NCBI RefSeq assembly: GCF_044324785.1
Contig: NZ_CP172127.1
Source of the DNA: Escherichia coli
GTDB lineage: Bacteria > Pseudomonadota > Gammaproteobacteria > Enterobacterales > Enterobacteriaceae
Length of the DNA: 64,000 nucleotides
Reading direction: 5' to 3' (one strand)
Below are positions 1-41,993 of this stretch, piece after piece. The notes below the pieces were generated by a model. That model saw only the letters and a program-made list of their open reading frames with translations. It searched no databases and was not told where the DNA came from. The position numbers and the translations under genes are program-made. Each line of letters opens with the position of its first letter. The first letter of the stretch is position 1.

Positions 1-2301
1 ATGGCCGTTAAAGCCTCCGGGCGTTTTGTCCCTCCGTCAGCATTTGCCGCAGGCACCGGTAAGGCGTTTACCGGTGCTTATGCATGGAACGCGCCACGCG
101 AGGCTGTCGGGCGCGAAAGACCCCTTACACGTGACGAGATGCGTCAGGTGCAAGGTGTTTTATCCACGATTAACCGCCTGCCTTACTTTTTGCGCTCGCT
201 GTTTACTTCACGCTATGACTACATCCGGCGCAATAAAAGCCCGGTGCACGGGTTTTATTTCCTCACATCCACTTTTCAGCGTCGTTTATGGCCGCGCATT
301 GAGCGTGTGAATCAGCGCCATGAAATGAACACCGACGCGTCGTTGCTGTTTCTGGCAGAGCGTGACCACTATGCGCGCCTGCCGGGAATGAATGACAAGG
401 AGCTGAAAAAGTTTGCTGCCCGTATCTCATCGCAGCTTTTCATGATGTATGAGGAACTCTGCGATGCCTGGGTGGATGCGCATGGCGAAAAAGAATCGCT
501 GTTTACGGATGAGGCGCAGGCACATCTGTATGGTCATGTTGCTGGCGCTGCACGTGCTTTCAATATTTCCCCGCTTTACTGGAAAAAATACCGTAAAGGG
601 CAGATGACCACGAGGCAGGCATATTCTGCCATTGCCCGCCTGTTTAACGATGAGTGGTGGACTCATCAGCTTAAAGGCCAGCGTATGCGCTGGCATGAGG
701 CGTTACTGATTGCTGTCGGGGAGGTCAATAAAGACCGTTCTCCTTATGCCAGTAAACATGCCATTCGTGATGTGCGTGCGCGCCGCCAGGCAAATCTGGA
801 ATTTCTTAAATCGTGTGACCTTGAAAACAAGGAAACCGGCGAGCGCATCGACCTTATCAGTAAGGTGATGGGCAGTATTTCTAATCCAGAAATTCGCCGG
901 ATGGAGCTGATGAACACCATCGCCGGTATTGAGCGTTACGCCGCCGCAGAGGGTGATGTAGGGATGTTTATCACGCTGACCGCGCCGTCAAAGTATCACC
1001 CGACACGTCAGGTCAGAAAAGGCGAAAGTAAAACCGTCCAGCTAAATCACGGCTGGAACGATGAGGCATTTAATCCAAAGGATGCGCAGCGTTATCTCTG
1101 CCGTATCTGGAGCCTGATGCGCACGGCATTCAAGGATAATGATTTACAGGCCTACGGTTTGCGTGTTGTTGAACCACACCACGACGGAACGCCGCACTGG
1201 CATATGATGCTTTTTTGTAATCCACGCCAGCGTAACCAGATTATTGAAATCATGCGTCGCTACGCGCTCAAAGAGGATGGCGACGAAAGAGGAGCTGCGC
1301 GAAACCGTTTTCAGGCAAAACACCTTAACCGGGGCGGTGCTGCGGGATATATCGCGAAATACATCTCAAAAAACATCGACGGCTATGCACTGGATGGTCA
1401 GCTCGATAATGATACCGGTAGACCGCTGAAAGACACAGCTGCGGCTGTTACCGCATGGGCGTCAACGTGGCGCATTCCGCAATTTAAAACGGTTGGTCTG
1501 CCGACAATGGGGGCTTACCGTGAACTACGCAAATTGCCTCGCGGCGTCAGCATTGCTGATGAGTTTGACGAGCGCGTCGAGGCTGCACGCGCCGCTGCAG
1601 ACAGTGGTGATTTTGCGTTGTATATCAGCGCGCAGGGCGGGGCAAATGTCCCGCGCGATTGCCAGACTGTCAGGGTCGCCCGTAGCCCGTCGGATGACGT
1701 TAACGAGTACGAGGAAGAAGTCGAGAGAGTGGTCGGCATTTACGCGCCGCATCTCGGCGCGCGTCATATTCATATCACCAGAACGACGGACTGGCGCATT
1801 GTTCCGAAAGTGCCGGTCGTTGAGCCTTTGACTTTAAAAAGCGGCATCGCCGCGCCTCGGAGTCCTGTCAATAACTGTGGAAAGCTCACCGGTGGTGATA
1901 CTTCGTTACCGGCTCCCACACCTTCTGAGCACGCCGCAGCAGTGCTTAATCTGGTTGATGACGGTGTTATTGAATGGAATGAACCGGAGGTCGTGAGGGC
2001 GCTCAGGGGCGCATTAAAACACGGCCTGAGAAGACCAAACCGTCAGCAAAGAAACGGAAGCCCGTTAAAACCGCATGAAATAGCGCCATCGGCCAGACTG
2101 ACCCGGTCGGAACGAATGCAAATTACCCGTATCCGCGTTGACCTTGCTCAGAACGGTATCAGGCCACAGCGATGGGAGCTTGAGGCGCTGGCGCGTGGTG
2201 CGATGGTGATATTCGATGATAAAAAATATAAGTATGTGGCAAGTAATGTCGATGAGTGGCAGGGTTTTAGTAATGAGTACTTCAGCAAAGAGCTCAAGTA
2301 A
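1..2301 (+). CDS. A: P2-type replication initiator, rolling-circle nicking endonuclease gpA (766 aa)
   Basis: ORF starts with ATG at position 1. HUH-type motif PHWHMML and tyrosine pair GYIAKYISK are visible in the translation. Colinear with the downstream P2-like gene set. Promoter lies outside the window. Confidence 0.9.
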   Translation: MAVKASGRFVPPSAFAAGTGKAFTGAYAWNAPREAVGRERPLTRDEMRQVQGVLSTINRLPYFLRSLFTSRYDYIRRNKSPVHGFYFLTSTFQRRLWPRIERVNQRHEMNTDASLLFLAERDHYARLPGMNDKELKKFAARISSQLFMMYEELCDAWVDAHGEKESLFTDEAQAHLYGHVAGAARAFNISPLYWKKYRKGQMTTRQAYSAIARLFNDEWWTHQLKGQRMRWHEALLIAVGEVNKDRSPYASKHAIRDVRARRQANLEFLKSCDLENKETGERIDLISKVMGSISNPEIRRMELMNTIAGIERYAAAEGDVGMFITLTAPSKYHPTRQVRKGESKTVQLNHGWNDEAFNPKDAQRYLCRIWSLMRTAFKDNDLQAYGLRVVEPHHDGTPHWHMMLFCNPRQRNQIIEIMRRYALKEDGDERGAARNRFQAKHLNRGGAAGYIAKYISKNIDGYALDGQLDNDTGRPLKDTAAAVTAWASTWRIPQFKTVGLPTMGAYRELRKLPRGVSIADEFDERVEAARAAADSGDFALYISAQGGANVPRDCQTVRVARSPSDDVNEYEEEVERVVGIYAPHLGARHIHITRTTDWRIVPKVPVVEPLTLKSGIAAPRSPVNNCGKLTGGDTSLPAPTPSEHAAAVLNLVDDGVIEWNEPEVVRALRGALKHGLRRPNRQQRNGSPLKPHEIAPSARLTRSERMQITRIRVDLAQNGIRPQRWELEALARGAMVIFDDKKYKYVASNVDEWQGFSNEYFSKELK

Positions 2302-2351: not shown

Positions 2352-3503
2352 ATGAATGTGGTTGATTTATACTCAGGGGTAGGTGGTTTAAGCTTGGGAG
2401 CATCACGGGCAGGCTTTAACTTGGTTGGTGCCGTTGAGTTGGATAAGCATGCAATATTTTCCCATGCTCTTAATTTCCCAAATTCAACACATTTACATAA
2501 AGATGTTAGCAAACTTTCTGCTCATGATATTCTAACAGCTTGTAATGTTAGTAATATTGATTGTGTCATCGGTGGACCACCTTGTCAGGGATTTAGTACA
2601 ATTGGTAAAGGGATGGCTAATGACGTCAGAAATGAATTGTATATTCATTTTTTTAGGTTGGTGAGCGAGTTATCACCTGTTTGTTTCTTGGCAGAGAATG
2701 TTCCTGGGATAATGAATGAAAAATATGATGCAGTTAGAGAAAAAGCATTCTCATTAGTAAAAGACCGATATGTAATATTGAGCCCAATAAAAGTGAATGC
2801 GTCTAATTATGGAGCTCCTACAACTAGAACTAGGATTTTTTTTATCGGATTCAAAAAGGAATTAGCTAATTGTTTAAAAGAATCTGATTTCTTTCCTGTG
2901 CAAGATATTGAGCAAACCTTAGTTAAAGATGCTTTATACGGTATTCCTCGTGTTATAAGAAAAGAATGGCAGCAAGAGGAACAAGGCTGGCGTGAAGTTA
3001 AGATGGATAGGCAAGGATATTTTTTTGATAGACTTTGGAGTAATGTTCCGAATAATGTTGGTGATCCGGAATCTTTAGAAAAATTAAAAAAAGGGTTGGT
3101 CTCCGGTTTCTTGGGAACAATACATACAGATGAGGTTATTAATAGATATAAAAAACTCTCTTTTGGCGAAACTGATAAAATTTCACGATCTCAGAGGTTA
3201 AATCCAAATGGTTTCTGTCCGACGCTAAGGGCTGGAACTGGCAGCGATAAGGGCAGTTATCAAGCAGTTAGGCCGATCCATCCAACGCAGGCTAGAGTTA
3301 TTACTCCACGTGAGGCTGCTCGATTACAAGGTTTTCCTGATTGGTTTAGGTTTCACCCTACTAAGTGGCATAGTTTCAGGCAAATCGGTAATAGCGTTAG
3401 CCCATTAGTAGCTGAAGCTATGCTATTACCGTTATATAAATTATGTCAGTTTTCTAAAGAAGAACTTTCGAATACCACGGAATTACTTTGTAATACTCAA
3501 TAA
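2352..3503 (+). CDS. DNA (cytosine-5)-methyltransferase (383 aa)
   Basis: Canonical C5-MTase motifs in order: motif I DLYSGVGG, motif IV GGPPCQGFS, motif VI FLAENVPG, motif VIII-like TTRTRIFFIG, motif X IGNSVSP. AT-rich relative to flanking phage genes. Starts 51 bp after the gpA stop. Confidence 0.85.
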   Translation: MNVVDLYSGVGGLSLGASRAGFNLVGAVELDKHAIFSHALNFPNSTHLHKDVSKLSAHDILTACNVSNIDCVIGGPPCQGFSTIGKGMANDVRNELYIHFFRLVSELSPVCFLAENVPGIMNEKYDAVREKAFSLVKDRYVILSPIKVNASNYGAPTTRTRIFFIGFKKELANCLKESDFFPVQDIEQTLVKDALYGIPRVIRKEWQQEEQGWREVKMDRQGYFFDRLWSNVPNNVGDPESLEKLKKGLVSGFLGTIHTDEVINRYKKLSFGETDKISRSQRLNPNGFCPTLRAGTGSDKGSYQAVRPIHPTQARVITPREAARLQGFPDWFRFHPTKWHSFRQIGNSVSPLVAEAMLLPLYKLCQFSKEELSNTTELLCNTQ

Positions 3504-3915
3504 AGTTTTTAAGGTTACTATTAGCCTCGGCTTCATCATCTCCAATGTAAAAGCCGAGGTCGTTGGTAATTTCTTCATGGTCTTTTGTAGGAAGTCGTTC
3601 CTCAATAAAGATTCTCTCACGTAAAGACATCGTGGGAACACTAATGTTTTTGACGGTGCCCCAGTCTCCAGAATAAAAGGGCCAAAAATTAATTCGAGAA
3701 TTTTGAAGGAAGCTATCTAATTGCATATCACTGTTTTCGAGAACAATGGCAGTAAAGGTAAGCATTTGCTGACCATCTTTGTAAATAAAATTACATAAAG
3801 GATGGATCATTATATCTGGTCTACCTGTTAATCCAATACTTATGGCACGTTGAGCTGCTTTTATTAAAAGGTGTGGGTACCTTTTAAAAGTGACATCATC
3901 AACAGTTAGATTCAC
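3454..3915 (-). CDS. Hypothetical protein (153 aa), third gene of GHKL-ATPase operon
   Basis: GTG start overlaps the stop of the upstream 177-aa ORF by 4 nt (GTGA). No recognisable motif. 3' end overlaps the MTase 3' end convergently by 50 bp. Confidence 0.55.
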   Translation of the reverse strand: MNLTVDDVTFKRYPHLLIKAAQRAISIGLTGRPDIMIHPLCNFIYKDGQQMLTFTAIVLENSDMQLDSFLQNSRINFWPFYSGDWGTVKNISVPTMSLRERIFIEERLPTKDHEEITNDLGFYIGDDEAEANSNLKNFIEYYKVIPWYSKVLL

Positions 3916-4445
3916 TGGGCAATAATCTTGAGTAAGTAAAGATTGTATTTTTTTAATCGAAAACGCCTAGGGTCTCTTTCTTGAAAATCTCTTCCTAAAG
4001 TTTCAGGAGTTGCATTTAAAGTTATTTTAAATATATCTTTTGGCTTTAACTTACTTACCAATTGAGCAATGTCATTCATTTGCTCATATATTTGGCTTGG
4101 TATGGCATAGTCAAGCCAAATTAGAGAAGGTGCAGCGAAGTCGCTTTGAGTAATAAATTCACTGCTACTTAAAGGTTCTTCTCCTAAATCAATACATGAT
4201 ATAGGTTTGTTAAATTTTTGTCGTTTATGAACGTTAGCATCTACCTCTAGAGAGATCATGTTATTGATTTTTAAAGCATTATGCAGTTGTTTGAAGTCTT
4301 CTAGAAAAGGGCCACCAAACCCGATATAAACATAATCGGATATGTTTACATAGTTGTTGAGTTTTCTGAGCAACTCAATGAATAGATTTCTTTCGACAGC
4401 TTTGTGTTGTCGAAGATGATAAGGAATACTTCCCCCAGTACTCAT
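3912..4445 (-). CDS. Hypothetical protein (177 aa), second gene of GHKL-ATPase operon
   Basis: ATG overlaps the stop of the 488-aa ORF by 4 nt (ATGA). Weak glycine-rich stretch YVYIGFGGPF could be a nucleotide- or SAM-binding loop, but no confident family assignment. Confidence 0.55.
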   Translation of the reverse strand: MSTGGSIPYHLRQHKAVERNLFIELLRKLNNYVNISDYVYIGFGGPFLEDFKQLHNALKINNMISLEVDANVHKRQKFNKPISCIDLGEEPLSSSEFITQSDFAAPSLIWLDYAIPSQIYEQMNDIAQLVSKLKPKDIFKITLNATPETLGRDFQERDPRRFRLKKYNLYLLKIIAQ

Positions 4446-5908
4446 TTTTTTGCCCTCTCTAAAAAATCTTCAAAGCAATAATTACCAATTTCTGTCGGAG
4501 GAACAGAATCATCATCGAAAATGAAAGTGGCAACAGTTTTTATCTCACTCAATCTTCTACTAAATTTTATTTGCTTTAAAGGGTCTGTTTCTTTAGGTAT
4601 TGGCAATGTTGGTTTGAAACTATTCCCACCAATGGATCTATGCACCCGAGACCATTTATCTTCAGGTACTATGCTATCTAGTTTGTCGTTTGTAAGAGGA
4701 ATTGTTTTAGATGTGGAACTAAACATTTGCTGGCGTTCTGGAGAGTTACTTTTCCATCTGTTAGTAAAATCTGTAAATATTTTCAAGCCTTCACGCATGA
4801 AATCTTTAGTAGCCAAATAGATATCAGAATTACCATCAATGCCTCTCTTGGTAGTAGTAATAGGTAATTTTTCAGCTTCATTAGATGTAAAAATAGCTAC
4901 GCCTGCAATTCCAACAAATTGTGTGTGATATTGTGGAACTCCTGCTTCACCCCATCCGGTAAGACGTGTCTTGTCCGCATGAACAACAACACGATCATTG
5001 CAGATAATAGTCCATCCGGCTTTCTCGGAAGTGTTACGTCCAGTAAGGAATGAATTTTCCTCATCTTCTGTCACAAAATCTCTATAGAATCCAACTGCGA
5101 TCTTTATTGAAACTCCATTAGTTTCACCTCTGTAAAAATAAGGCGTGATACCACCTTTTTTCGCTGACACAAGAGCTTCGGTATCGATAATTAATGATGT
5201 CAGATTTGGCTTGACTTCTATATCATTAATATAGACCTTGAAACCTTTATTAAGAATTAGGCTATAATGGTTTGAAACAGAATTGATTAATTTTTGTTGA
5301 AAATCACGATCAACTTTGAAATGGTTTTTTACATCGTCTCTGAGATCGTTAACTATAATTTTTACGCCCGTTGTTTTTAAATCGACATTACCACGTTCGA
5401 GATCTAGTTTCCAGTTTTTATCATTGGATAACCATTCTGGAGAAATTGTAACTTTAAATTCCTCGTCTTTTGTTTTACTTAATACTTGCGATGAAGTGCC
5501 CAACTTAAAAATAGCTCGCTTCATACCTATCCCATAAACACCAATGGTTGGGATATTATCTATGTCTCTTTCATTTGGTCTTCCCATTCGGAAAGCATAG
5601 CTTGTTGCTAAGCTTCCCGAAATTCCGCCACAATTATCTTCAATTGTAAAACCATCTTCATTAAAATTTATTTTTGAGTAAAAACCGTGGTATTTATTTT
5701 CTTCGTTTATTTCTTCATTCGATGATGAAATGGAACGAAGAGCGCCATCAAGACAGTTGTCTAATAAGTCAAGAATAGCATCTTGGAGTTCGATATCCCT
5801 GGTTAACATTTCTACAAAGAAACGTTTTGCAGGAAAAGCTTCGATGATATCGTTTGCCATAGTTATTTTAGTTCCATCTGTGTGATTACTTATAGATATG
5901 TTTACCAT
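4442..5908 (-). CDS. GHKL-superfamily (MutL/GyrB/MORC-like Bergerat fold) ATPase (488 aa)
   Basis: N-box AILDLLDNCLDGA, G1 box IEDNCGGISG and G2 box IGVYGIGMKRA occur in the expected order and spacing in the N-terminal ~130 residues. C-terminal ~350 residues unassigned. First gene of a 3-gene coupled operon. Confidence 0.7.
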   Translation of the reverse strand: MVNISISNHTDGTKITMANDIIEAFPAKRFFVEMLTRDIELQDAILDLLDNCLDGALRSISSSNEEINEENKYHGFYSKINFNEDGFTIEDNCGGISGSLATSYAFRMGRPNERDIDNIPTIGVYGIGMKRAIFKLGTSSQVLSKTKDEEFKVTISPEWLSNDKNWKLDLERGNVDLKTTGVKIIVNDLRDDVKNHFKVDRDFQQKLINSVSNHYSLILNKGFKVYINDIEVKPNLTSLIIDTEALVSAKKGGITPYFYRGETNGVSIKIAVGFYRDFVTEDEENSFLTGRNTSEKAGWTIICNDRVVVHADKTRLTGWGEAGVPQYHTQFVGIAGVAIFTSNEAEKLPITTTKRGIDGNSDIYLATKDFMREGLKIFTDFTNRWKSNSPERQQMFSSTSKTIPLTNDKLDSIVPEDKWSRVHRSIGGNSFKPTLPIPKETDPLKQIKFSRRLSEIKTVATFIFDDDSVPPTEIGNYCFEDFLERAKK

Positions 5909-7359: not shown

Positions 7360-9131
7360 CAGTAAAACTCCAGAATGGTGGATGTCAGCGGGGTGCTGAT
7401 ACCGGCGGTGAGTGGCTCATTTAACAGGGCGTGCATGGTCGCCCAGGCGAGGTCGGCGTGGCTGGCTTCCTCGCTGCGGCTGGCTTCATAGGTGGCGCTG
7501 CGTCCGCTGCTGGTCATGGTCTTGCGGATAGCCATAAACGAGCTGGTGATGTCGGTGGCGCTGACGTCATATTCCAGACAGCCACGGCGGATAACGTCTT
7601 TTGCCTTGAGCACCATTGCGGTTTTCATTTCCGGCGTGTAGCGGATATCACGCGCGGCGGGATAGAACGAGCGCACGAGCTGGAACACGCCGACACCGAG
7701 GCCGGTGGCATCAATACCGATGTATTCGACGTTGTATTTTTCGGTGAGTTTGCGGATGGATTCAGCTTGGGTGGCAAAGTCCATGCCTTTCCACTGGTGA
7801 CGCTCAAGTATTCTGAATTTGCCACCGGCCACCACCGGCGGTGCCAGTACCACGCATCCGGCGCTGTCGCCACGGTGTGACGGGTCGTAACCAATCCATA
7901 CCGGGCGGGAGCCGAACGGATTGGCGGCAAACGGCGCATAGTCTTCCCATTCTTCCAGCGTGTCGACCATGCAGCGTTGCAGCTCCTCGAACGGGAACAC
8001 CGATGCCTTGTCGTCAACAAATTCACACATGAACAGGTTTTTAAAATCGTCGGCGCTGTTTTCGCGTTTGAGCTGCTCAATGTCGAACAGCGTGCAGCCG
8101 CCTTTCAGGGCATCCTCAATGGTGACAATCTGCCGCCACTGGCCGTCCGCACAGAGAAGCCCACCGGCAAGGGCGTTATGACTGACGTCGATTTCCACAC
8201 GTTCGGCGGCGCTGGCGCGTCCCCGGTTGAACAGTTCACCTGACCAGAACGGGTAGGCGTCGTGCGCCAGCGTGGACGGGGTGGAGAAATAGGTCGAGCG
8301 CAGGTGACTCTGTGAGGCCATACCTGATGCCACCTTACGCAGTACCTGAAAATTCGGGATCCAGAAAATCTCATCGACGTACAGGTCGCCGTTATGGCTC
8401 TGCGCGGTGTTGGAGTTTGTGCCGAGAAAAATCAGTTTTGCGCCGTTATTGCCCAGGACAATCGGGTCACCGGTCAGGTCAACGTCAACCAGACGGGCAA
8501 AGGCGATGATGTATTCACGGAATACATACGCCTGCGTTTTACTGGCCGACAGAAAAATCTGGTTATGGCCGGTTTTCAGGGCGCGCAGCAGCGCCTCGCG
8601 GGAAAAATAAAACGTTGCGCCAATCTGGCGGGATTTCAGGATATCGCGGATGCGGTGCTCAAGCCCGGCGCGATACCAGTGCAACTGATAGTCGAAAGAC
8701 TGCTCAAAGAAAATCTGCTCCAGCTTTTCGATGGCCTCGTCACTGAAAAAATTCTTTTTCGGTTTGCGACGCCCGCCTTTGTTGCGGTTAGCGACGTTCG
8801 GATTAAGGTCTGCCTCGTTGCCGGTCTGACTGTAGCGGTTTATCCGTGCCAGTCGTTCAATCTGGCGTCCGAGCAGGTCAATTTCCTTGAAGTCACCACC
8901 GGTTTTCTGCGGTTTGATGATGAGCTGGGTCAGTCGCGCTTCCAGACTCATTTCGACACGGCTGATGGGGGCAACGCTGTCCCAGCCGTCGCGCTGTTTC
9001 CAGCTCTGCACCGTCGGGCGTTTCATCTGCAACATGGCGGCAATCTGCGGCACGGAAAACCCCTGCCAGTACAGCAGCGCCGCCTGACGACGCGGGTCGT
9101 GTAAAAGAGTGGTGTCTGTGGTGATGGTCAT
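7359..9131 (-). CDS. P: Terminase large (ATPase) subunit gpP (590 aa)
   Basis: ORF track gives 7359..9161. Start trimmed to the internal Met (MTITTDTTLL) that matches the P2 gpP N-terminus and length. Confidence 0.9.
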   Translation of the reverse strand: MTITTDTTLLHDPRRQAALLYWQGFSVPQIAAMLQMKRPTVQSWKQRDGWDSVAPISRVEMSLEARLTQLIIKPQKTGGDFKEIDLLGRQIERLARINRYSQTGNEADLNPNVANRNKGGRRKPKKNFFSDEAIEKLEQIFFEQSFDYQLHWYRAGLEHRIRDILKSRQIGATFYFSREALLRALKTGHNQIFLSASKTQAYVFREYIIAFARLVDVDLTGDPIVLGNNGAKLIFLGTNSNTAQSHNGDLYVDEIFWIPNFQVLRKVASGMASQSHLRSTYFSTPSTLAHDAYPFWSGELFNRGRASAAERVEIDVSHNALAGGLLCADGQWRQIVTIEDALKGGCTLFDIEQLKRENSADDFKNLFMCEFVDDKASVFPFEELQRCMVDTLEEWEDYAPFAANPFGSRPVWIGYDPSHRGDSAGCVVLAPPVVAGGKFRILERHQWKGMDFATQAESIRKLTEKYNVEYIGIDATGLGVGVFQLVRSFYPAARDIRYTPEMKTAMVLKAKDVIRRGCLEYDVSATDITSSFMAIRKTMTSSGRSATYEASRSEEASHADLAWATMHALLNEPLTAGISTPLTSTILEFY

Positions 9132-12852: not shown

Positions 12853-13134
12853 ATGACAGCAGAAGAAAAAAGCGTCCTGTCGCTTTTCATGATTGGGGTG
12901 CTGATTGTTGTCGGCAAGGTGCTTGCCGGTGGTGAACCCATTACCCCGCGTCTGTTTATCGGGCGCATGTTGCTCGGTGGTTTTGTCTCGATGGTTGCCG
13001 GTGTTGTTCTGGTGCAGTTCCCTGACCTGTCACTGCCTGCGGTGTGCGGCATCGGCTCCATGCTGGGTATCGCCGGTTATCAGGTGATTGAGATTGCCAT
13101 TCAGCGCCGCTTTAAGGGCAGGGGGAAACAGTAA
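12853..13134 (+). CDS. Y: Holin gpY (93 aa)
   Basis: Small hydrophobic protein with transmembrane segments, immediately upstream of the endolysin. Confidence 0.85.
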   Translation: MTAEEKSVLSLFMIGVLIVVGKVLAGGEPITPRLFIGRMLLGGFVSMVAGVVLVQFPDLSLPAVCGIGSMLGIAGYQVIEIAIQRRFKGRGKQ

Positions 13135-13631
13135 TGCAGGTAATTAACACGCATCAGAATATCGCCGCCTTTCTCGACATGCTGGCCGTGTCCGAAGGGA
13201 CGGCGAATCATCCGCTGACGAAAAACCGGGGCTATGACGTGATAGTCACCGGACTGGACGGAAAGCCGGAAATTTTCACCGACTACAGTGACCACCCGTT
13301 CGCACATGGCCGACCGGCGAAGGTGTTTAACCGTCGCGGTGAAAAATCAACGGCCTCCGGTCGCTATCAGCAGCTTTACCTGTTCTGGCCGCATTACCGC
13401 AAACAGCTTGCCCTGCCGGATTTCAGTCCGTTGTCACAGGACAGACTCGCCATTCAGTTGATCCGCGAACGCGGTGCACTGGATGACATCCGGGCGGGAC
13501 GTATTGAGCGCGCCATTTCACGCTGTCGCAATATCTGGGCGTCCCTGCCGGGTGCCGGTTACGGTCAGCGTGAGCATTCACTGGAAAAACTGGTCACCGT
13601 CTGGCGTACCGCTGGCGGCGTACCGGCTTAA
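13134..13631 (+). CDS. K: Endolysin (lysozyme-like) gpK (165 aa)
   Basis: Position in the lysis cassette, size, and start overlapping the holin stop. Confidence 0.9.
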   Translation: MQVINTHQNIAAFLDMLAVSEGTANHPLTKNRGYDVIVTGLDGKPEIFTDYSDHPFAHGRPAKVFNRRGEKSTASGRYQQLYLFWPHYRKQLALPDFSPLSQDRLAIQLIRERGALDDIRAGRIERAISRCRNIWASLPGAGYGQREHSLEKLVTVWRTAGGVPA

Positions 13632-13645
13632 ACGGAGTAAACACC

Positions 13646-14071
13646 ATGAAGAAATTATCCCTTTCACTGATGCTGAACGTGTCGCTGGCGCTGATGCTGG
13701 CACTGTCCCTGATTTACCCGCAGAGCGTGGCCGTCAGTTTTGTCGCTGCCTGGGCGATTCTGGCGACGGTTATCTGTGTGGTTGCCGGTGGTGTCGGCGT
13801 TTATGCCACTGAGTATGTGCTGGAACGCTACGGGCGGGAGCTGCCGCCGGAGTCGCTGGCCGTGAAGATTGTCATGTCGCTGTTTTTGCAGCCAGTGCCG
13901 TGGTGCAGACGGGCGGCGGCTCTGGTGGTGATGGTGGCGACATTTATCTCGCTGGTCGCTGCCGGGTGGATTTTTACCGCGCTGATTTATCTCGTGGCGT
14001 CGGTGTTCTTCCGGCTGATACGTACGGCCTGCCGTCAACGTCTTGAGGGGCGGGAACCATGTCAAAGCTGA
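13646..14071 (+). CDS. lysA: Lysis timing protein LysA (141 aa, membrane)
   Basis: Hydrophobic ORF following K, as in P2. Confidence 0.8.
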   Translation: MKKLSLSLMLNVSLALMLALSLIYPQSVAVSFVAAWAILATVICVVAGGVGVYATEYVLERYGRELPPESLAVKIVMSLFLQPVPWCRRAAALVVMVATFISLVAAGWIFTALIYLVASVFFRLIRTACRQRLEGREPCQS

Positions 14072-14484
14072 TGATTGTGATGGTTGTGTTGTTATCGCTG
14101 GCGGTGGCGGGGCTGTTTCTGGCGAAGCATGAAAACGCCAGCCTGCGCGCCTCGCTGGACAGGGTGAACAACGTCGCCAGTGAACAGCAGACGACCATCA
14201 CCATGCTGAAAAATCAGCTTCATGTTGCCCTCACCAGGGCAGACAAAAACGAGCTGGCGCAGGTGGCACTGCGTCAGGAACTGGAGAACGCCGCGAAGCG
14301 TGAAGCACAGCGCGAGAAAACCATCACGAGGTTACTTAATGAAAACGAAGATTTTCGCCGCTGGTACGGCGCTGACCTGCCTGATGCTGTGCGCCGGTTG
14401 CACCAGCGCCCCGCCTGCACCGACGCCAGTGATTGTCCACAACGCCTGCCCGAAAGTGAGCCTTTGCCCGATGCCGGGCAGTGA
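14059..14484 (+). CDS. lysB: LysB, Rz-like inner-membrane spanin (141 aa)
   Basis: N-terminal transmembrane segment followed by a coiled-coil-like region. Position after lysA. Confidence 0.8.
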   Translation: MSKLMIVMVVLLSLAVAGLFLAKHENASLRASLDRVNNVASEQQTTITMLKNQLHVALTRADKNELAQVALRQELENAAKREAQREKTITRLLNENEDFRRWYGADLPDAVRRLHQRPACTDASDCPQRLPESEPLPDAGQ

Positions 14485-14629
14485 CCCGCAGACGAACGGT
14501 GATTTAAGTGCCGATATCCGGCAGCTTGAGAACGCGCTGGCACGCTGTGCCAGCCAGGTAAAAATGATTAAACACTGTCAGGACGAAAACGATGCTCAAA
14601 CCCGACAGCCTGCGCAGGGCGCTGACTGA
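14339..14629 (+). CDS. lysC: LysC, Rz1-like outer-membrane lipoprotein spanin (96 aa), embedded out of frame in lysB
   Basis: Internal start MKTKIFAAGTALTCLMLCAGC with lipobox LCAGC. Lies in the +1 frame overlapping the 3' part of lysB and the start of R. Confidence 0.7.
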   Translation: MKTKIFAAGTALTCLMLCAGCTSAPPAPTPVIVHNACPKVSLCPMPGSDPQTNGDLSADIRQLENALARCASQVKMIKHCQDENDAQTRQPAQGAD

Positions 14630-15059
14630 TGCCGTCACGGTGCTGAAAACCAGTCCCGAGATGTTGCGGATATTCGTGGATAACGGGAGTATTGCCTCCA
14701 CGCTGGCGACGTCGTTGTCATTCGAAAAGCGTTACACGCTCAATGTGATTGTGACCGACTTTACCGGTGATTTTGACCTGCTCATCGTGCCGGTGCTGGC
14801 GTGGCTGCGGGAAAATCAGCCCGACATCATGACCACCGACGAAGGTCAGAAAAAAGGTTTCACGTTTTATGCAGACATCAACAATGACAGCAGCTTTGAT
14901 ATCAGCATCAGCCTGATGCTGACCGAGCGCACGCTGGTCAGTGAGGTGGACGGCGCGCTGCATGTGAAGAATATCCCGGAACCCACGCCGCCGGAGCCGG
15001 CCACCCGCCCGATGGAGCTTTATATCAATGGCGAACTGGTGAGCAAGTGGGATGAATGA
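14592..15059 (+). CDS. R: Tail completion protein gpR (155 aa)
   Basis: Position and size. Confidence 0.85.
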   Translation: MLKPDSLRRALTDAVTVLKTSPEMLRIFVDNGSIASTLATSLSFEKRYTLNVIVTDFTGDFDLLIVPVLAWLRENQPDIMTTDEGQKKGFTFYADINNDSSFDISISLMLTERTLVSEVDGALHVKNIPEPTPPEPATRPMELYINGELVSKWDE

Positions 15060-15504: not shown

Positions 15505-16131
15505 TTTTATCCAGGCAGAGGCTGATGCGCAATTAAACATTGAGCGGCCATGCTGGTCGCTCAATGTTTAGAGGTTTATGAGTGATTTTTATTTGATGCT
15601 TTGTATTCTAAAACCTTCTTATTGGCGTAAAAGAATTTTGTATATGACAGGAATATAACCAGACCTGAAGTGAAATAGACGAGGGATAGTATTAATAATG
15701 CTTTTTTGTGACTGTTATTATCTTTAATCTCCTGGCTTAACCATTCGGAGTCCTCCTCGTTTAGCTGTAAGAGCTTATTGCAGGCGATCTCAGGAAGTGT
15801 GTCTTTTATAAATACGTTTTGCAGTCTCTTGCAATCGGCAAGGCTATAAGTTTTATTAAATTCAACTGCTTTATTTTTGAAGGATAAAAGAACTTTGTCA
15901 CTATAAACATAGTACATCATGTTTTTATATGGTATGCCTATGGCATCCCTTACTATAACGGATTGTACGTTGTGTATGTAACATGCGAGGAGAATGTAAA
16001 AAATACTGGCCAGAATTACAATTATTGTTTTAATTATGTGTAGACTGGCCCCCTGAATCTCCAGACAACCAATATCACTTAAATAAGTGATAGTCTTAAT
16101 ACTAGTTTTTAGACTAGTCATTGGAGAGCAG

Positions 16132-16497
16132 ATGATTGATGTCTTAGGACCGGAGAAACGCAGACGGCGTACTACACAGGAAAAGATCGCTATTGTTCAG
16201 CAGAGTTTTGAACCGGGAATGACGGTCTCCCTTGTTGCCCGGCAACACGGTGTGGCAGCCAGCCAGTTATTTCTCTGGCGCAAGCAATACCAGGAGGGAA
16301 GTCTTACTGCTGTGGCCGCAGGAGAGCAGGTCGTTCCTGCCTCTGAACTTGCTGCTGCCATGAAGCAGATTAAAGAACTCCAGCGCCTGCTCGGCAAAAA
16401 AACGATGGAAAATGAACTCCTTAAAGAAGCCGTTGAATACGGGCGTGCAAAAAAGTGGATAGCGCACGCGCCCTTATTGCCCGGGGATGGGGAGTAA
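16132..16497 (+). CDS. insC: IS2 transposase OrfA, InsC (121 aa)
   Basis: Start [24 protein letters not shown] with upstream GGAGAG Shine-Dalgarno. HTH-containing N-terminus. The GTG at 16087 in the ORF track is rejected as the start. Confidence 0.9.
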
Positions 16498-17360
16498 GCT
16501 TAGTCAGCCGTTGTCTCCGGGTGTCGCGTGCGCAGTTGCACGTAATTCTCAGACGAACCGATGACTGGAAAGATGGTCGCCGCAGCCGTCACTCAGATGA
16601 TACGGATGTGCTTCTCCGTATACACCATGTTATCGGAGAGCTGCCCACGTATGGTTATCGTCGGGTATGGGCGCTGCTTCGCAGACAGGCCGAACTTGAT
16701 GGTATGCCTGCGATCAATGCCAAACGTGTTTACCGGATCATGCGCCAGAATGCGCTGTTGCTTGAGCGAAAAACCGCTGTACCGCCATCGAAACGGGCAC
16801 ATACTGGCAAAGTGGCCGTGAAAGAAAGCAATCAACGATGGTGCTCTGACGGGTTCGAGTTCCGCTGTGATAACGGAGAAAAACTGCGAGTCACGTTCGC
16901 GCTGGACTGCTGTGACCGTGAGGCACTGCACTGGGCAGTCACTACGGGCGGCTTCGACAGTGAAACAGTACAGGACGTAATGCTGGGAGCGGTGGAACGC
17001 CGCTTCGGCAACGAGCTTCCGGCGTCTCCAGTAGAGTGGCTGACGGATAATGGTTCATGCTACCGGGCTAATGAAACACGGCAGTTTGCCCGGATGTTGG
17101 GGCTTGAACCGAAGAACACGGCGGTGCGGAGTCCGGAGAGTAACGGCATAGCAGAGAGCTTCGTGAAAACGATAAAGCGTGACTACATCAGTATCATGCC
17201 TAAACCAGACGGGTTAACGGCAGCAAAGAACCTTGCAGAGGCGTTCGAGCATTATAACGAATGGCATCCGCATAGTGCACTGGGTTATCGCTCGCCACGG
17301 GAATATCTGCGGCAGCAGGCCAGTAATGGGTTAAGTGATAACAGGTGTCTGGAAATATAG
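16455..17360 (+). CDS. insD: IS2 transposase OrfB, InsD (301 aa, DDE catalytic domain)
   Basis: Overlaps insC in the -1 frame, the typical IS3-family frameshift arrangement. Translation [19 protein letters not shown].... Confidence 0.9.
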
Positions 17361-17780
17361 GGGCAAATCCAATGTGTGGTGGTTTTGTTATGTCACCCCA
17401 GATGCGAGTAAGAAAAAAATACGATGTTTTTAGTTTTCCATCAATCAGTCCCTGCTGTATCATTCTCACATTTTCAATGCCTGATACATTGATTCCGTTA
17501 ATTATTTTAAATAGTTGAATGTCGCGCCACTCGCGGTCAAGTCTTTTTAATTTTTTGTCTGAATATCCAAAATTGAAATAATGTGCAATAAGCCTCATAA
17601 GGTTACTTTTACCAAAGCTAAAAAATGCTAATACTGCAAAGCTACAAAGGAAAAAAACGATTAGCCCCCACACATTAGTCACATTATAGCTGACCATTAC
17701 GCTCTCCTTGAATGTTGTCTGGTAGTTCTACAAATGAATCCAGATAGCATAACTTTTATATATTGTGCAATCTCACATGC

Positions 17781-20206: not shown

Positions 20207-22525
20207 ATGAGCACAAAATTCAGAACCGTTATCACCACTGCCGGTGCAGCAAAGCTGGCAGCGGCAACCGCACCGGGAGGGCGGAAGGTCAACATTACCA
20301 CGATGGCCGTCGGGGATGGCGGTGGTAAATTGCCTGTCCCGGATGCCGGACAGACCGGGCTTATCCACGAAGTCTGGCGACATGCGCTGAACAAAATCAG
20401 CCAGGACAAACGAAACAGTAATTATATTATCGCAGAGCTGGTTATTCCGCCGGAGGTGGGCGGTTTCTGGATGCGTGAGCTTGGCCTGTACGATGATGCG
20501 GGAACGTTAATTGCTGTGGCGAACATGGCCGAAAGTTATAAGCCAGCTCTCGCCGAAGGCTCAGGGCGTTCGCAGACCTGTCGCATGGTCATCATCGTCA
20601 GCAGTGTGGCCTCAGTGGAGCTGACCATTGACACCACAACAGTGATGGCGACGCAGGATTACGTTGATGACAAAATTGCAGAGCACGAACAGTCACGACG
20701 TCACCCGGACGCCTCGCTGACCGCCAAAGGTTTTACTCAGTTAAGCAGTGCGACCAACAGCACGTCTGAAACACTGGCCGCAACGCCGAAAGCGGTAAAG
20801 GCCGCGTATGACCTTGCTAACGGGAAATATACTGCGCAGGATGCCACCACAGCGCGAAAAGGTCTTGTCCAGCTCAGTAGTGCCACCAACAGCACGTCTG
20901 AAACGCTCGCTGCAACACCAAAAGCGGTAAAAGCAGCATATGACCTGGCTAACGGGAAATATACCGCACAGGACGCCACCACCGCGCGAAAAGGCCTTGT
21001 CCAGCTAAGTAGCGTCACCAACAGCGATTCTGAAACGCTTGCGGCAACGCCAAAGGCGGTTAAGACAGCGTATGACCTTGCTAACGGGAAATACACTGCA
21101 CAGGATGCCACCACAGCGCGAAAAGGGCTTGTCCAGCTCAGTAGCGCCACCAACAGTGATTCTGAAACCCTCGCGGCAACGCCAAAAGCAGTGAAGTCTG
21201 CCTATGACAATGCTGAAAAACGTCTTCAGAAAGATCAGAACGGTGCGGATATTCCGGGAAAGGATACCTTCACGAAAAATATCGGTGCCTGTCGTGCTTA
21301 TAGCGGCGCTTTGAGCACTGAAGCCGGAAACTGGACAACCGCTCAGTTTATTGAATGGCTGGATTCCCGTGGTGCATTTAATCATCCGTACTGGATGTGC
21401 AAAGGCTCCTGGTCATATGCAAATAACAAAATCATTACGGATACCGGATGTGGTGATATCCACCTGGCTGGTTGTGTCGTCGAGGTCATGGGAACTAAAT
21501 CTGCAATCACTATCCGAGTGACCACGCCGACAACATCAAGCGGTGGCGGTACAACCAGCGCGCAATTCACTTACATTAATCATGGGGACGGCTACTCCCC
21601 CGGCTGGCGTCGTGACTGGAATCGTCAGGGCGACGCAATGACCGGAACGATTAATCAGGATGGCGGAAGCCAGAATGCCTATATGTCTACGGCCTTATGT
21701 TCAGGCACCAGAGGCGGCAAAAAATATCTCAGAAAGTTTCGTGGTGGAGAAGGAGACACTATCTGGCATGAAACAGTACAGGGCGGGGTAGTTCGCTGGG
21801 CGACTGGTAATACTGATGCTCAGGAAGAATTATCACTCAGCTCCGCTTATGGTCTCCGTTCAAGAGGTGAGATTACATCAAGCAGTGCTAATGGTCTGCG
21901 CATTGCTTATGGCAATTATGGATTCTTTATCAGGAATGATGGCAGCAGCACTTATTTTATGTTGACTAAATCAGGTGACAGATTAGGCACTTATAATAAT
22001 TTAAGACCACTGATTATAAATGATGCCACGGGTGCTGTATCAATGGGGCATGGCCTGAGTGTTACTGGTGATATTGCCTCAAGTACCAAAGTACGTGCCG
22101 GTAGCGGGAAAAAATTCACGGTCAGCAGCAGTAATACATCCACGAAGGAAGCCGCATTCAATTTGTGGGGAAACTCAAGTCGTCCGGTGGTGGCTGAATT
22201 AGGTGATGATGCAGGCTGGCATTTTTACAGTCAGAGAAATACAGATAACAGCATCACTTTTGCTGTTAACGGGCAGGTATCACCATCTAACTATAGTAAT
22301 TTTGATTCACGCTATGTCCGGGATATCCGGCTTGGTGGTGCTGCCACATACAAACCTGCGAACAATGGCATGACATGGACACATCAGGCACCGTCCGGGT
22401 GTGTATATTCCGGCATTATTGTTCAGGATACCGGCTCAAACTCTGCCGATAACATTGGTGGCGTATATTACAGACCGGTGCAGAAATACATTAACGGGAC
22501 ATGGTATAACGTGGCACAGGTATAA
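20207..22525 (+). CDS. H: Tail fibre protein gpH (772 aa) with internal tandem repeats and divergent distal half
   Basis: Conserved N-terminus MSTKFRTVITTAGAAKLAAA, then a repeat block, then an AT-richer C-terminal half. Confidence 0.85.
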   Translation: MSTKFRTVITTAGAAKLAAATAPGGRKVNITTMAVGDGGGKLPVPDAGQTGLIHEVWRHALNKISQDKRNSNYIIAELVIPPEVGGFWMRELGLYDDAGTLIAVANMAESYKPALAEGSGRSQTCRMVIIVSSVASVELTIDTTTVMATQDYVDDKIAEHEQSRRHPDASLTAKGFTQLSSATNSTSETLAATPKAVKAAYDLANGKYTAQDATTARKGLVQLSSATNSTSETLAATPKAVKAAYDLANGKYTAQDATTARKGLVQLSSVTNSDSETLAATPKAVKTAYDLANGKYTAQDATTARKGLVQLSSATNSDSETLAATPKAVKSAYDNAEKRLQKDQNGADIPGKDTFTKNIGACRAYSGALSTEAGNWTTAQFIEWLDSRGAFNHPYWMCKGSWSYANNKIITDTGCGDIHLAGCVVEVMGTKSAITIRVTTPTTSSGGGTTSAQFTYINHGDGYSPGWRRDWNRQGDAMTGTINQDGGSQNAYMSTALCSGTRGGKKYLRKFRGGEGDTIWHETVQGGVVRWATGNTDAQEELSLSSAYGLRSRGEITSSSANGLRIAYGNYGFFIRNDGSSTYFMLTKSGDRLGTYNNLRPLIINDATGAVSMGHGLSVTGDIASSTKVRAGSGKKFTVSSSNTSTKEAAFNLWGNSSRPVVAELGDDAGWHFYSQRNTDNSITFAVNGQVSPSNYSNFDSRYVRDIRLGGAATYKPANNGMTWTHQAPSGCVYSGIIVQDTGSNSADNIGGVYYRPVQKYINGTWYNVAQV
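20726..21225 (+). repeat. About 3.8 tandem copies of a 132-bp (44-aa) unit inside H
   Basis: Peptide unit QLSSATNS(T/D)SETLAATPKAVKAAYDLANGKYTAQDATTARKGLV recurs with Q codons at 20738, 20870, 21002 and 21134. Confidence 0.9.
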
Positions 22526-22528
22526 TTT

Positions 22529-23056
22529 ATGCAGCATTTGATAAATATAACCGCGGGTAATCCAAAAACGGTTGAACAATATCAATTGACAAAGGACTTT
22601 GATGTTGTCTGGTTTTTTACAGAAGATGGTAAGAACTGGTACGAAGAACAAAAGTATTTTGCTGATGACACGATAAAAATAGCGTACGACAAGGATAATA
22701 TTATCCGCTATGTGGAAAAAGATGTGACAGCTATCAGACCAGATGGATTAAGTGTGGTTGAAGTGGCGGATATTACTGCTAACCGACGGGCGGACATTTC
22801 AGGGAACTGGATGTTTAAGGACGGCAAAGTGATTAAACGCATTTATACGGCAGAGGAATTGCAGCAGCAGGCAGAAAACCGGAAAGCCAGACTTCTTGCA
22901 GATGCTGAATCCGTGATTTTGCCACTGGAGCGCGCTGTCAGGCTGAACATGGCAACAGATGAGGAGCGTAGCCGACTGGAAGCATGGGAACGCTACAGTG
23001 TTCTGGTCAGCCGTGTGGATCCTGCAAATCCTGAATGGCCGGAAATGCCGCAATAA
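22529..23056 (+). CDS. G: Tail fibre assembly chaperone gpG (175 aa)
   Basis: Immediately downstream of H. AT-rich like the distal part of H. Confidence 0.8.
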
Positions 23057-23445: not shown

Positions 23446-23973
23446 ATGGACTGGAAAGATCTTGCATCAACCGCTGTGTATACAGGTATGACTGATGAAA
23501 ATGAAAGCATATGGGAACGTGTTGATGGGGTTGACGTTGCCTTCATAGGTGCCTTTCTTACTGCGCACTTGAGCCTTGAAAAGTATATTACTGATTATCT
23601 TGGATTAAGATATCCTTCGTTAGCTTGGGGTGATGCAAAACTCACATTTTCACAAAAAATAGCTTTAATACAACATGAGCCTGCAACCCCCCCTTATGAT
23701 GAAATATATTTAAGAATAAAAGACTTTAACAGCATAAGAAATAAAATCAGTCATCAATTGAATTATCAGATTACGGATAAAGAAAAAAGTAAGTTTGTGG
23801 ACTTCTACATGAAGATTACTAAAGCCAGTAAAACTAAACCAAATATTGATATTGATAACATGGCAGATTTGTTGGATTTTTTCGTATCGATGACAAAATC
23901 CTATTTTGCTAGTGCTATTTCTTGTTATCACTATAATAAAAAGGTTGCAGGTAAAAGTAATAAAATTGATTAA
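23446..23973 (+). CDS. Hypothetical cargo protein (175 aa) with Rx4H HEPN-like motif
   Basis: Very AT-rich gene in the G-to-FI gap, where P2 carries Z/fun. Motif IRNKISH (R-x4-H) in the middle of the protein. Good Shine-Dalgarno. Confidence 0.55.
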   Translation: MDWKDLASTAVYTGMTDENESIWERVDGVDVAFIGAFLTAHLSLEKYITDYLGLRYPSLAWGDAKLTFSQKIALIQHEPATPPYDEIYLRIKDFNSIRNKISHQLNYQITDKEKSKFVDFYMKITKASKTKPNIDIDNMADLLDFFVSMTKSYFASAISCYHYNKKVAGKSNKID

Positions 23974-31146: not shown

Positions 31147-32508
31147 TCACTTACCGTGGGGGTTACGCGTGGTTTCCCCGGAGAAATTACGCATCAGCAG
31201 CGCGTAATTTAGCTCAAGATCCTGCGGCACCGGGATCCACACAGTATAACCATCGCCCGGTGCGACCGGCATTGCTTCGCCTTTGGCGTTTTCCATGTGC
31301 TCAAGGGTAAAGTTAATGTTCCCTTGCGGCGTCATCAGCTCAAGGCTGTCGCCAACGGAGAATTTATTTTTCACCGCTACCGCCGCGAGGTCGCCCTTGC
31401 GCTCACCGGTAAACTCACCAACAAACTGCTGGCGGTCAGAAACTGAATAACCGTATTCGTAGTTCTGATAATCGTCGTGAGTATGACGACGCAGGAAACC
31501 TTCGGTATAGCCACGATGCGCCAGACCTTCCAGAGTTTCCAGCAGGCTGGTATCGAACGGTTTGCCCGCAGCGGCGTCATCGATAGCTTTACGGTAAACC
31601 TGTGCGGTGCGTGCGCAATAGTAGAAAGATTTAGTACGGCCTTCGATTTTCAGCGAATGCACGCCCATTTTGGTCAGGCGTTCAACGTGGGCGATAGCGC
31701 GCAGATCTTTCGAGTTCATGATGTAAGTGCCGTGCTCATCTTCAAACGCGGTCATATACTCGCCCGGACGCTGGGCTTCTTCGATCATAAACACTTTGTC
31801 GGTTGGCGCGCCGATACCCAGCGTCGGCTCAACATTTTGCACCGGAATCGGCTCGTACTTGTGCACGATGTTGCCAACGTCATCTTCTTTCCCTTCCTGG
31901 ACGTTGTACTCCCAGCGGCAGGCGTTGGTGCAGGTGCCCTGGTTCGGGTCGCGCTTGTTGATATAGCCAGAGAGCAGGCAGCGACCGGAGTAGGCCATGC
32001 ACAGCGCGCCGTGAACGAAGATTTCGATCTCCATATCTGGCACCTGATTGCGGATCTCTTCAATCTCTTCCAGCGACAGCTCGCGAGAGAGGATCACGCG
32101 GGTCAGGCCCATTTGCTGCCAGAATTTCACCGTCGCCCAGTTCACGGCGTTAGCCTGTACCGAGAGATGGATCGGCATTTCAGGGAAGTGCTCACGCACC
32201 AGCATAATCAGCCCAGGATCGGACATTATCAGCGCATCCGGCCCCATTTCCACCACCGGTTTCAGGTCACGGATAAAGGTTTTCAGCTTGGCGTTGTGCG
32301 GTGCAATGTTGACCACGACATAAAACTTTTTCCCCAGCGCATGGGCTTCATTAATGCCGAGCTGAAGATTTTCGTGGTTGAATTCGTTGTTGCGCACACG
32401 CAGGGAGTAACGCGGCTGGCCCGCATAAACAGCATCTGCGCCATAAGCGAAAGCGTAACGCATATTTTTCAGCGTTCCCGCCGGGGAAAGGAGTTCCGGT
32501 TTAAACAT
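31147..32508 (-). CDS. yegQ: Peptidase U32-family protein YegQ (RlhA, 23S rRNA hydroxycytidine synthase), 453 aa
   Basis: Full-length translation is recognisable as E. coli YegQ. Confidence 0.9.
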   Translation of the reverse strand: MFKPELLSPAGTLKNMRYAFAYGADAVYAGQPRYSLRVRNNEFNHENLQLGINEAHALGKKFYVVVNIAPHNAKLKTFIRDLKPVVEMGPDALIMSDPGLIMLVREHFPEMPIHLSVQANAVNWATVKFWQQMGLTRVILSRELSLEEIEEIRNQVPDMEIEIFVHGALCMAYSGRCLLSGYINKRDPNQGTCTNACRWEYNVQEGKEDDVGNIVHKYEPIPVQNVEPTLGIGAPTDKVFMIEEAQRPGEYMTAFEDEHGTYIMNSKDLRAIAHVERLTKMGVHSLKIEGRTKSFYYCARTAQVYRKAIDDAAAGKPFDTSLLETLEGLAHRGYTEGFLRRHTHDDYQNYEYGYSVSDRQQFVGEFTGERKGDLAAVAVKNKFSVGDSLELMTPQGNINFTLEHMENAKGEAMPVAPGDGYTVWIPVPQDLELNYALLMRNFSGETTRNPHGK

Positions 32509-32709
32509 AATTCTCTCGTTCTGATGACAGGTCAGATCCGCTTCACCTGATGAAGCGGCCAGGGGAGTGCCCCCACTTTAAGGGCGGGCATTGTAGCGCA
32601 ATCGTTGGGGTTGGCTCCAGTGTAATTGTGATGAGCTTTTCGATGCCTGGCGTACAATTGACATCAGAATTGAGTATATTTACGACCGTGAATGCTAAGG
32701 AGTTAAAAC

Positions 32710-33315
32710 ATGTGGATGTTAAAGAAGGGAATCACGCTGGCTCTGTTGGTTCTGTTTTCTCTGCCCGCTACTGCCGGTCTTTCGCTGGAGGAGACTGCTC
32801 GTAAGGTGATTATCGGCTTTCAGCAAAAAGATGCTCAATTAATCAACTCGTTAATTGATAAAAAAACGGGGTTGTATGTTCTCTTCCAGCGTGGCGCTTC
32901 GATGGATGTCGAAAATTTTAAGTCAATTGATTTTAAAACGCCTGTTCCCGAGTATTTGCTGTGGCCTTCGGCAGGGGAACATATTCCGCGAGATGAAGAG
33001 TTTGATAAGAAAACTATCCCGGAATTTGACTGTGAACGTGGTTGGAATAAGCACGGATATTTTATTAGCAGCAGCGATACACACCATAAAGTCAGCCGTA
33101 ATTTGGTCTTCACGCAGATGTTTGGTTCACCGCGAAACACTATTTCTGATGCGCAGATTGCCGCAGCGCGTCGAATGGAGTACGGGGCCGTGCGTGTGGT
33201 CGCTGCGCCAGAAGGGGGTAGCGATGGACTGGTATTTTATTTAAGTCAACTTTACGGTTATGACCGTGACTGGTATCTGACGGTGGTGGATCAGATTGGT
33301 GATTGTGGGGCGTGA
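32710..33315 (+). CDS. Hypothetical secreted protein (201 aa)
   Basis: N-terminal signal peptide MLKKGITLALLVLFSLPATA. No recognisable family. In an islet that, as far as I recall, is absent from the K-12 yegP-yegQ interval. Confidence 0.6.
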   Translation: MWMLKKGITLALLVLFSLPATAGLSLEETARKVIIGFQQKDAQLINSLIDKKTGLYVLFQRGASMDVENFKSIDFKTPVPEYLLWPSAGEHIPRDEEFDKKTIPEFDCERGWNKHGYFISSSDTHHKVSRNLVFTQMFGSPRNTISDAQIAAARRMEYGAVRVVAAPEGGSDGLVFYLSQLYGYDRDWYLTVVDQIGDCGA

Positions 33316-33345
33316 TAAAGATTTATTCGCCCGCAAGCAGTGATG

Positions 33346-34746: not shown

Positions 34747-34868
34747 AATTTTCCTTATCAGTTATGAGGAGAAAACTCATTTCATGATTAATAATTTCTT
34801 GAGGGATAGTAACTCTGTGGTGAGAGAAAATAAAGCCGGACGCCAACAACCCACGCCCGGCATCGTAA

Positions 34869-35201
34869 TTACGTATTGTCTTTCACCGTCTGGCTTGTGC
34901 CATTGGCTTTAACGGAGGCAATTCCGGTTTCACGAGATTGCGCGGTGGCGTACATCTGGCTGGAGCCGATAATTTGATGATTGGCGGCTTTCAGATTGAA
35001 ATAGAATTTGCCGTTGCTTGCCGTTTTTTTCTCATAGCGTTCTTCTTGCGGGCTGTTGCTACGCACCGACGCGATGCCCTTTTCCGCAGAGGCTTTTGAT
35101 GTATACAGCTCGCTGGTGAGGATAGTCTCACCATTGCCCGCTTTTAGCACAAACCGAAATTGATTATCACTGCTCTTACTGAGTTCAAACCAACCAGCCA
35201 T
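34869..35201 (-). CDS. yegP: DUF1508-family protein YegP (110 aa)
   Basis: MAGWFELSKSSDNQFRFVLKAGNGE.... ORF track start at 35240 trimmed. Confidence 0.85.
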   Translation of the reverse strand: MAGWFELSKSSDNQFRFVLKAGNGETILTSELYTSKASAEKGIASVRSNSPQEERYEKKTASNGKFYFNLKAANHQIIGSSQMYATAQSRETGIASVKANGTSQTVKDNT

Positions 35202-35380
35202 AATGACTCCTTGATTGAAATTGCGTATCGAAAACAGCATCTAAAAGGACTGTTTACCGATTAAAGTATGAGCGATTTTCTGGTGCCTGCCAGGGCGAAG
35301 AGATAATGTCAGTTTGCTGACCATGCGTGGAATAATGTTGCCGGATGCGGCGTGAATGCCTTCTCCGGCAGGTAAAAATG

Positions 35381-41900: not shown

Positions 41901-41993
41901 CATACGGAAGCCCAGTATGCCGCACAGGGTAATGGCGACCGACAGTAAAATCGTCGCCACCGGGCGGTAAATGAAGAGGGCAAAAAACTTCAC
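38916..41993 (-). CDS. mdtC: RND multidrug efflux pump subunit MdtC (1025 aa)
   Basis: RND architecture. Operon position. Confidence 0.95.

Follow-up and report, generated by a model that had tools for sequence, protein, structure and literature searches.

A P2-type lysC o-spanin gene overlapping lysB and R in an Escherichia coli prophage, and its models in public records

Layout of the lysis cassette and identity of lysC

We analyzed a 64,000-nucleotide stretch of an Escherichia coli chromosome (here called the window), the first part of which is occupied by a P2-like prophage that extends from the replication gene A (1..2301) to about 30.6 kb, where it adjoins E. coli chromosomal genes. Family matches and the P2 GenBank record place the lysis genes in the order Y-K-lysA-lysB-lysC-R-S, as in P2. 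The features of this region are as follows, with the evidence for each in parentheses.

12853..13134, plus strand: Y, holin (PF04550, 143.6 bits)
13134..13631, plus strand: K, endolysin (P2 order and coordinates)
13646..14071, plus strand: lysA (NF038378, phrog_162)
14059..14484, plus strand: lysB, i-spanin of 141 aa with an N-terminal transmembrane segment (TIGR03495, P2 LysB match)
14328..14332, plus strand: Shine-Dalgarno sequence GAGGT, with 7 nt separating GAGG from the ATG (read from the sequence)
14339..14629, plus strand: lysC coding sequence, probable o-spanin, a 96-aa prolipoprotein (open reading frame and translation, P2 LysC match, NF038368, PF23793, phrog_456)
14339..14398, plus strand: predicted signal peptide of 20 codons, with n-region MKTK (+2), h-region IFAAGTALTCLML and lipobox L-C-A-G (hydropathy, homologues)
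14339..14484, plus strand: dual-coding stretch of 146 nt, lysB in frame 0 and lysC in frame +1 (coordinates, substitution counts)
14399..14401, plus strand: Cys21 codon, predicted lipid-modified first residue of the 76-aa mature LysC (conservation)
14485..14591, plus strand: 107 nt in which lysC is the sole reading frame (third-position substitution excess)
14536..14554, plus strand: hairpin inside lysC, GCTGGCAC-GCT-GTGCCAGC, with an 8-bp GC-rich stem (P2 feature 8399..8417)
14592..15059, plus strand: R, tail completion gene, sharing its first 38 nt with the end of lysC (PF06891, 153 bits)

A first-pass annotation of this DNA had proposed, at 14339 to 14629, an Rz1-like lipoprotein gene, lysC, that was embedded out of frame in lysB, ran into R, and formed an overlapping spanin pair with lysB. 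We found an open reading frame of 96 codons on the plus strand at exactly these positions; its ATG is at 14339, its TGA ends at 14629, and the product begins MKTKIFAAGTALTCLMLCAGCTSAPP / MKTKIFAAGTALTCLMLCAGCTSAPPAPTPVIVHNACPKV. Since (14339 − 14059) mod 3 equals 1, lysC lies in the +1 frame relative to lysB, and the out-of-frame arrangement therefore stands, as does the overlap with R, which covers 38 nt (14592..14629). The description of lysC as embedded does not. The two genes share 146 nt (14339..14484), but lysC continues for 145 nt beyond the lysB stop codon, making the architecture overlapped rather than embedded and distinguishing it from the Rz1 family, in which the o-spanin gene is wholly contained.

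The assignment to the P2 LysC family was borne out by several comparisons. LysC is identical to P2 LysC (AAM83596) at 93 of 96 residues (97%), and LysB to P2 LysB at 134 of 141. The NF038368 model ("Rz1-like lysis system protein LysC"), whose cut-off is 27 bits, matched over profile positions 1 to 85 of 85 with 128.9 bits, and the TIGR03495 LysB model, whose cut-off is 92.75 bits, scored 171.5 bits. In the Pfam scan PF23793 (LysC) scored 63.5 bits, again with a cut-off of 27, and there were matches to PHROGs 456 and 89, both described as "Rz-like spanin." Across 2.5 kb around lysC, DNA identity to phage P2 and phages closely related to it is 96.8 to 97.7%. The comparison with P2 lysC that the first-pass annotation had proposed as a check showed that the P2 GenBank record has lysC in the equivalent 291 nt, flanked by lysB and R. 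The coordinates of gpR in P2 are likewise equivalent to those of R here, and the layout relative to lysB and R agrees both with that record and with the description in PMC3091744. The model matches, this layout, the neighboring LysB-family i-spanin gene and the P2-type lysis cassette together characterize a member of the P2 LysC family. A search by sequence for a solved structure of LysC gave none, the sole match having a meaningless E value of 0.24. We put at about 0.96 the probability that 14339..14629 is lysC, the o-spanin gene of a P2-like prophage in the E. coli chromosome.

Other parts of the prophage were also recorded. An IS3-family, IS2-like element (~16020..17375) sits within an orf30 homologue between S and V. 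It comprises orfA (16087..16497) and orfB (16455..17360) and is 99.5% identical to copies in most E. coli genomes. The leftover orf30 open reading frame (15576..16121, minus strand, 181 aa) matches only positions 105 to 261 of the 261-position phrog_2407. Between the replication gene A and the portal gene Q, the variable region of P2 holds cargo at 2352..5908. This comprises a Dcm-type C5 cytosine methyltransferase gene (2352..3503, plus strand; PADLOC MTase_II, 316 bits), a gene for a 488-aa HATPase_c_3 protein (4442..5908, minus strand), and a Methyltransf_35 gene on the minus strand that is divided between two open reading frames (3912..4445 and 3454..3915, matching profile positions 2 to 158 and 170 to 307), perhaps split by a frameshift. 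PADLOC gave no match for the HATPase and Methyltransf_35 proteins. The cargo may be a restriction or defense-type module. Downstream of the tail-fiber genes H and G (20207..23056) lies a 175-aa open reading frame (23446..23973, plus strand) that is equal in length to the G-like open reading frame at 22529..23056 and had no Pfam or PADLOC match; it may be a second tail-fiber assembly gene or belong to an alternative fiber cassette. The host flank of the prophage (31147..46510) begins with a yegQ-like U32 peptidase gene (31147..32508, minus strand), and the open reading frames after it resemble baeSR and mdtABCD in size and order only. Such a flank would put the prophage at the site of a cryptic P2 remnant in E. 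coli K-12.

Coding status and translation start of lysC

Long open reading frames in alternative frames are common in this part of the prophage: four spurious ones of 112 to 136 aa lie within 12.3 to 14.1 kb. We therefore rejected the length of the lysC open reading frame as evidence for the gene, and this abundance is what speaks for regarding lysC as a chance open frame in GC-rich coding DNA from which no protein is made. What raises lysC above chance is its homology, its conserved ribosome-binding site and start codon, and, where it is the sole reading frame, an excess of substitutions at third codon positions.

We compared the DNA of eight diverged P2/186-like phages: the prophage in the window, P2, 186, PSP3, EtG, BIS20, Klebsiella ST147-VIM1phi7.1 and Yersinia YenM_201.16. 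The last six have 70 to 74% DNA identity and the same Shine-Dalgarno sequence. The Shine-Dalgarno core AGGTTACT and the ATG were invariant in all eight, AGGTTACTnnATG was retained at the start of the lysC frame in each, and every one had an intact lysC frame of 96 to 104 codons. Against phage 186, the 107 nt covered by lysC and by no other gene carried substitutions in the ratio 8:6:18 by lysC codon position, an excess at third positions (binomial P = 0.006) of the kind expected of coding DNA. In the 146 dual-coding nucleotides the ratio was 6:12:12, with the fewest substitutions at lysC first positions, which are second positions in lysB. Among protein homologues, 59 full-length clusters showed no disruption of the frame down to 61% identity, and the curated family models far exceed their cut-offs. 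Genetic evidence in P2 points the same way (PMC3091744, PMC5707550, PMC3556154). The chance-frame reading is thus effectively refuted already, and we give it a negligible probability.

With the coding status of lysC settled to this degree, we considered where its translation begins. A longer open reading frame of 135 aa starts at an ATG at 14222 but is excluded by the upstream sequence in relatives, since the lysC ATG is immediately preceded by a TGA in EtG, and the frame is open for only four codons ahead of it in 186, PSP3 and BIS20. A later start, at Met16 (14384), would give an 81-aa cytoplasmic protein lacking a signal peptide. This start is used by PGAP in E. coli EC77, E70 and KL53, and 31 of the 120 homologue clusters listed begin MLC[AV]G. 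It would, however, leave just five residues ahead of the invariant cysteine, making export and lipidation impossible, and no Shine-Dalgarno sequence precedes Met16. The 15 upstream codons keep an n- and h-region pattern of constant length in 69 clusters, the match to the NF038368 profile begins with residue 4 of the 96-aa product, and the curated records of P2, 186 and PSP3 have the 96-aa start. We consider initiation at Met16 very improbable and take the ATG at 14339 as the start codon of lysC.

Lipoprotein signal and proposed spanin role

The h-region of the predicted LysC signal peptide has a mean Kyte-Doolittle hydropathy of 2.05 over residues 5 to 17; for residues 4 to 22 of LysB, the mean is 2.89. 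A lipobox, LCAGC, had been noted in the first-pass annotation and is present at lysC codons 17 to 21 (14387..14401). The same annotation had named loss of the lipobox in homologous phages as the result that would count against it, and the homologues instead kept the motif. A protein search returned 197 LysC homologues; in the 120 clusters listed, from which the motif counts were made, [LM][CS]x[GAS]C occurred at the aligned position in 116, with LCAGC itself in 89, and the four clusters without it were truncated or aberrant gene models. In 69 homologue clusters the cysteine at residue 21 followed a signal peptide with a constant length of 20 residues and the pattern M-K/R-x-x-x-F/Y-A-A-G-x-x-L-x-x-L-M-L-C-A-G.

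In an alignment of 60 full-length LysC sequences, down to 61% identity, 59 had Cys21 and every one had Thr22. Cys37, Cys43, Cys70 and Cys80 were each present in at least 58, and the block NGDLSADIRxLExAL was invariant or nearly so. The lipobox is noncanonical. Its cysteine at position −3 means that LysC does not match the core pattern of PROSITE PS51257, and we therefore relied on conservation to place the lipidation site. SpaninDB (Kongari et al. 2018) likewise notes the PROSITE mismatch of P2 LysC, for which it gives the Shine-Dalgarno sequence GAGGT, the lipobox LCAG, lengths of 96 aa and, for the mature protein, 76 aa, and LipoP sites at 20 and 17. Two other cysteines were considered and rejected as lipidation sites: Cys14 is replaced by Tyr in 22 of the 60 sequences, and Cys18, whose −1 residue would be Leu, is Ser in some relatives. 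These replacements point to Cys21 as the probable lipidation site.

The charged n-region, hydrophobic h-region, lipobox and invariant cysteine are those of an o-spanin lipoprotein signal. Thr at +2 and Ser at +3 of Cys21, with no Asp for Lol avoidance, predict sorting to the outer membrane. The mature protein of 76 aa has 9 prolines and four further cysteines; a proline-rich N-terminal part is followed by the conserved NGDLSADIRxLExAL core with those cysteines. All four would be periplasmic and could form disulfide links, and LysB has two cysteines predicted to be periplasmic. Intermolecular disulfides are near-universal among two-component spanins (PMC6139136).

Overlapped two-component spanins have P2 lysB/lysC as their type example (PMC6139136, PMC3556154, PMC3091744). 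In the current model, the lipoprotein o-spanin resides in the outer membrane's inner leaflet and binds the C terminus of the inner-membrane i-spanin, and spanin complexes are held in the peptidoglycan mesh until the endolysin clears it, whereupon the membranes fuse (PMC6139136). On this basis, the late O-operon mRNA of the prophage would be read in two frames over lysB/lysC. Some ribosomes would traverse lysB, while others would initiate at the internal ATG preceded by GAGG and produce the 96-aa prolipoprotein in the +1 frame. Mature LysC would then bind the periplasmic C terminus of the inner-membrane LysB, forming a complex that crosses the peptidoglycan mesh to bridge the periplasm, and would help to disrupt the outer membrane at phage release. 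By analogy with work on P2 and lambda, we infer that this LysC is lipidated, sorted to the outer membrane and bound to LysB, and that it takes part in membrane fusion.

The P2 GenBank record words the function of lysC differently, as "non-essential; regulation of lysis," and LysC might accordingly be read as mainly a regulator of lysis timing rather than a membrane-fusion subunit. LysC nevertheless has every anatomical feature of an o-spanin and is paired with an i-spanin. Markov is said to have found in 2004 that lambda Rz/Rz1 mutants are complemented by P2 lysB plus lysC. The field classes LysC as a spanin (PMC6139136, SpaninDB), and P2 without spanin function gives rise to spherical cells (PMC5707550, citing Markov 2004). 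A mainly regulatory LysC seems to us improbable, and we favor the o-spanin role.

Altering the first two prolines of LysC shifts lysis timing in P2 (PMC3556154), both prolines are present here (APPAP), and early-lysis alleles hint at a contribution to timing. The hairpin inside lysC is labeled in the P2 record "putative transcription attenuator; O operon." It has a minimum free energy of −14.3 kcal/mol (z = −2.0). A T-run is absent from it, and a terminator scan did not report it. It is conserved in the P2 lineage only, being absent in 186, PSP3, EtG and the Klebsiella and Yersinia relatives, and we rejected it as a conserved element for this reason. The genes are tightly packed, lysC starting inside lysB and ending 38 nt inside R, and the hairpin is stable; translation of lysC through it into the start of R might therefore couple spanin and tail-completion expression or attenuate the O operon, with LysC also affecting lysis timing. 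We regard this coupling as unlikely.

lysC in public records and its relation to known spanins

The lysC gene of P2-type prophages is already known and very common in E. coli, and nothing about its presence here is scientifically new: lysC DNA was found in 1,608 of 5,426 complete RefSeq E. coli genomes (about 30%). The first-pass annotation had also claimed that automated callers often drop such genes. That holds historically and for several phage records, but not for the E. coli genomes sampled from current RefSeq. In a sample of 40 E. coli matches spread down the ranking, 39 covered most or all of the query, and the coding sequence was named lysC in all 39.

The start codons in these records are another matter. 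Each of four RefSeq E. coli records examined begins lysC late, by 45 nt in three and by 33 nt in one, giving products of 81 aa (MLCAGC...) and 85 aa, respectively, and leaving 5 to 9 residues before the predicted lipidated cysteine. EC77, one of the records with the Met16 start, matches 701 nt of the window at 100% identity. The P2, 186 and PSP3 records have the full 291-nt lysC, whereas those of EtG, BIS20 and ST147-VIM1phi7.1 have a lysC of only 159 nt (52 aa), and lysC annotation is absent from those of YenM_201.16, fiAA91-ss and L-413C. Embedded and overlapped o-spanin genes have been described as mostly unannotated, often with wrong start codons (Kongari et al., PMC6139136). LysC matched two PHROG families, phrog_456 over its full length (102 positions) and the 62-position phrog_952 through residues 36 to 96 only, and it looks as if phrog_952 was built from lysC gene models truncated at the 5' end.

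Where the lysC model is shortened or missing, the signal peptide and lipobox are lost and the identity of the product as an outer-membrane lipoprotein is hidden. Screens of deposited prophage protein sets for spanins or lipoproteins would misclassify truncated lysC entries. The practical value of the present analysis lies in annotation: lysC can now be retrieved under its name, yet the start codon in public models is often placed too far downstream.

The closest known system is P2 itself. P2 LysC has the same 96-aa length, Shine-Dalgarno sequence, +1-frame start inside lysB, stop inside R and lipobox (LCAG|C), and it occupies the same place in the Y-K-lysA-lysB-lysC-R-S cassette. Three substitutions, R2K, V11A and P34H, separate the protein here from it. 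The first two, in the signal peptide, are conservative; position 34 is Tyr in most LysC relatives (60 full-length sequences). Unlike P2, the prophage has an orf30 interrupted by the IS3-family element, and its cargo genes differ from those of P2. Orf28 of 186 and gp12 of PSP3 (Eganvirus) are also 96 aa long, with the same overlapped arrangement and Shine-Dalgarno core, and with the signal peptide, cysteines and NGDLSADIR core conserved, at about 72 to 75% protein identity, but these phages lack the P2-type hairpin inside lysC.

Lambda Rz1 belongs to the same functional class. It is a small outer-membrane lipoprotein that contains proline, its gene lies in the +1 frame of an i-spanin gene, and it works with a partner anchored N-terminally in the inner membrane, as LysC would. 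Sequence similarity to lambda Rz1 was not found: the Pfam scan at E ≤ 0.01 gave PF23793 alone, and the PHROG matches are P2 type. With no Pfam family other than PF23793 matched, LysC appears to be a functional analogue of lambda Rz1 and no sequence relative. The two also differ in architecture and composition. The Rz1 gene lies entirely within Rz, but lysC extends beyond lysB into R, and mature LysC has 76 aa and four further cysteines, whereas Rz1, according to the literature, has about 40 aa and one.
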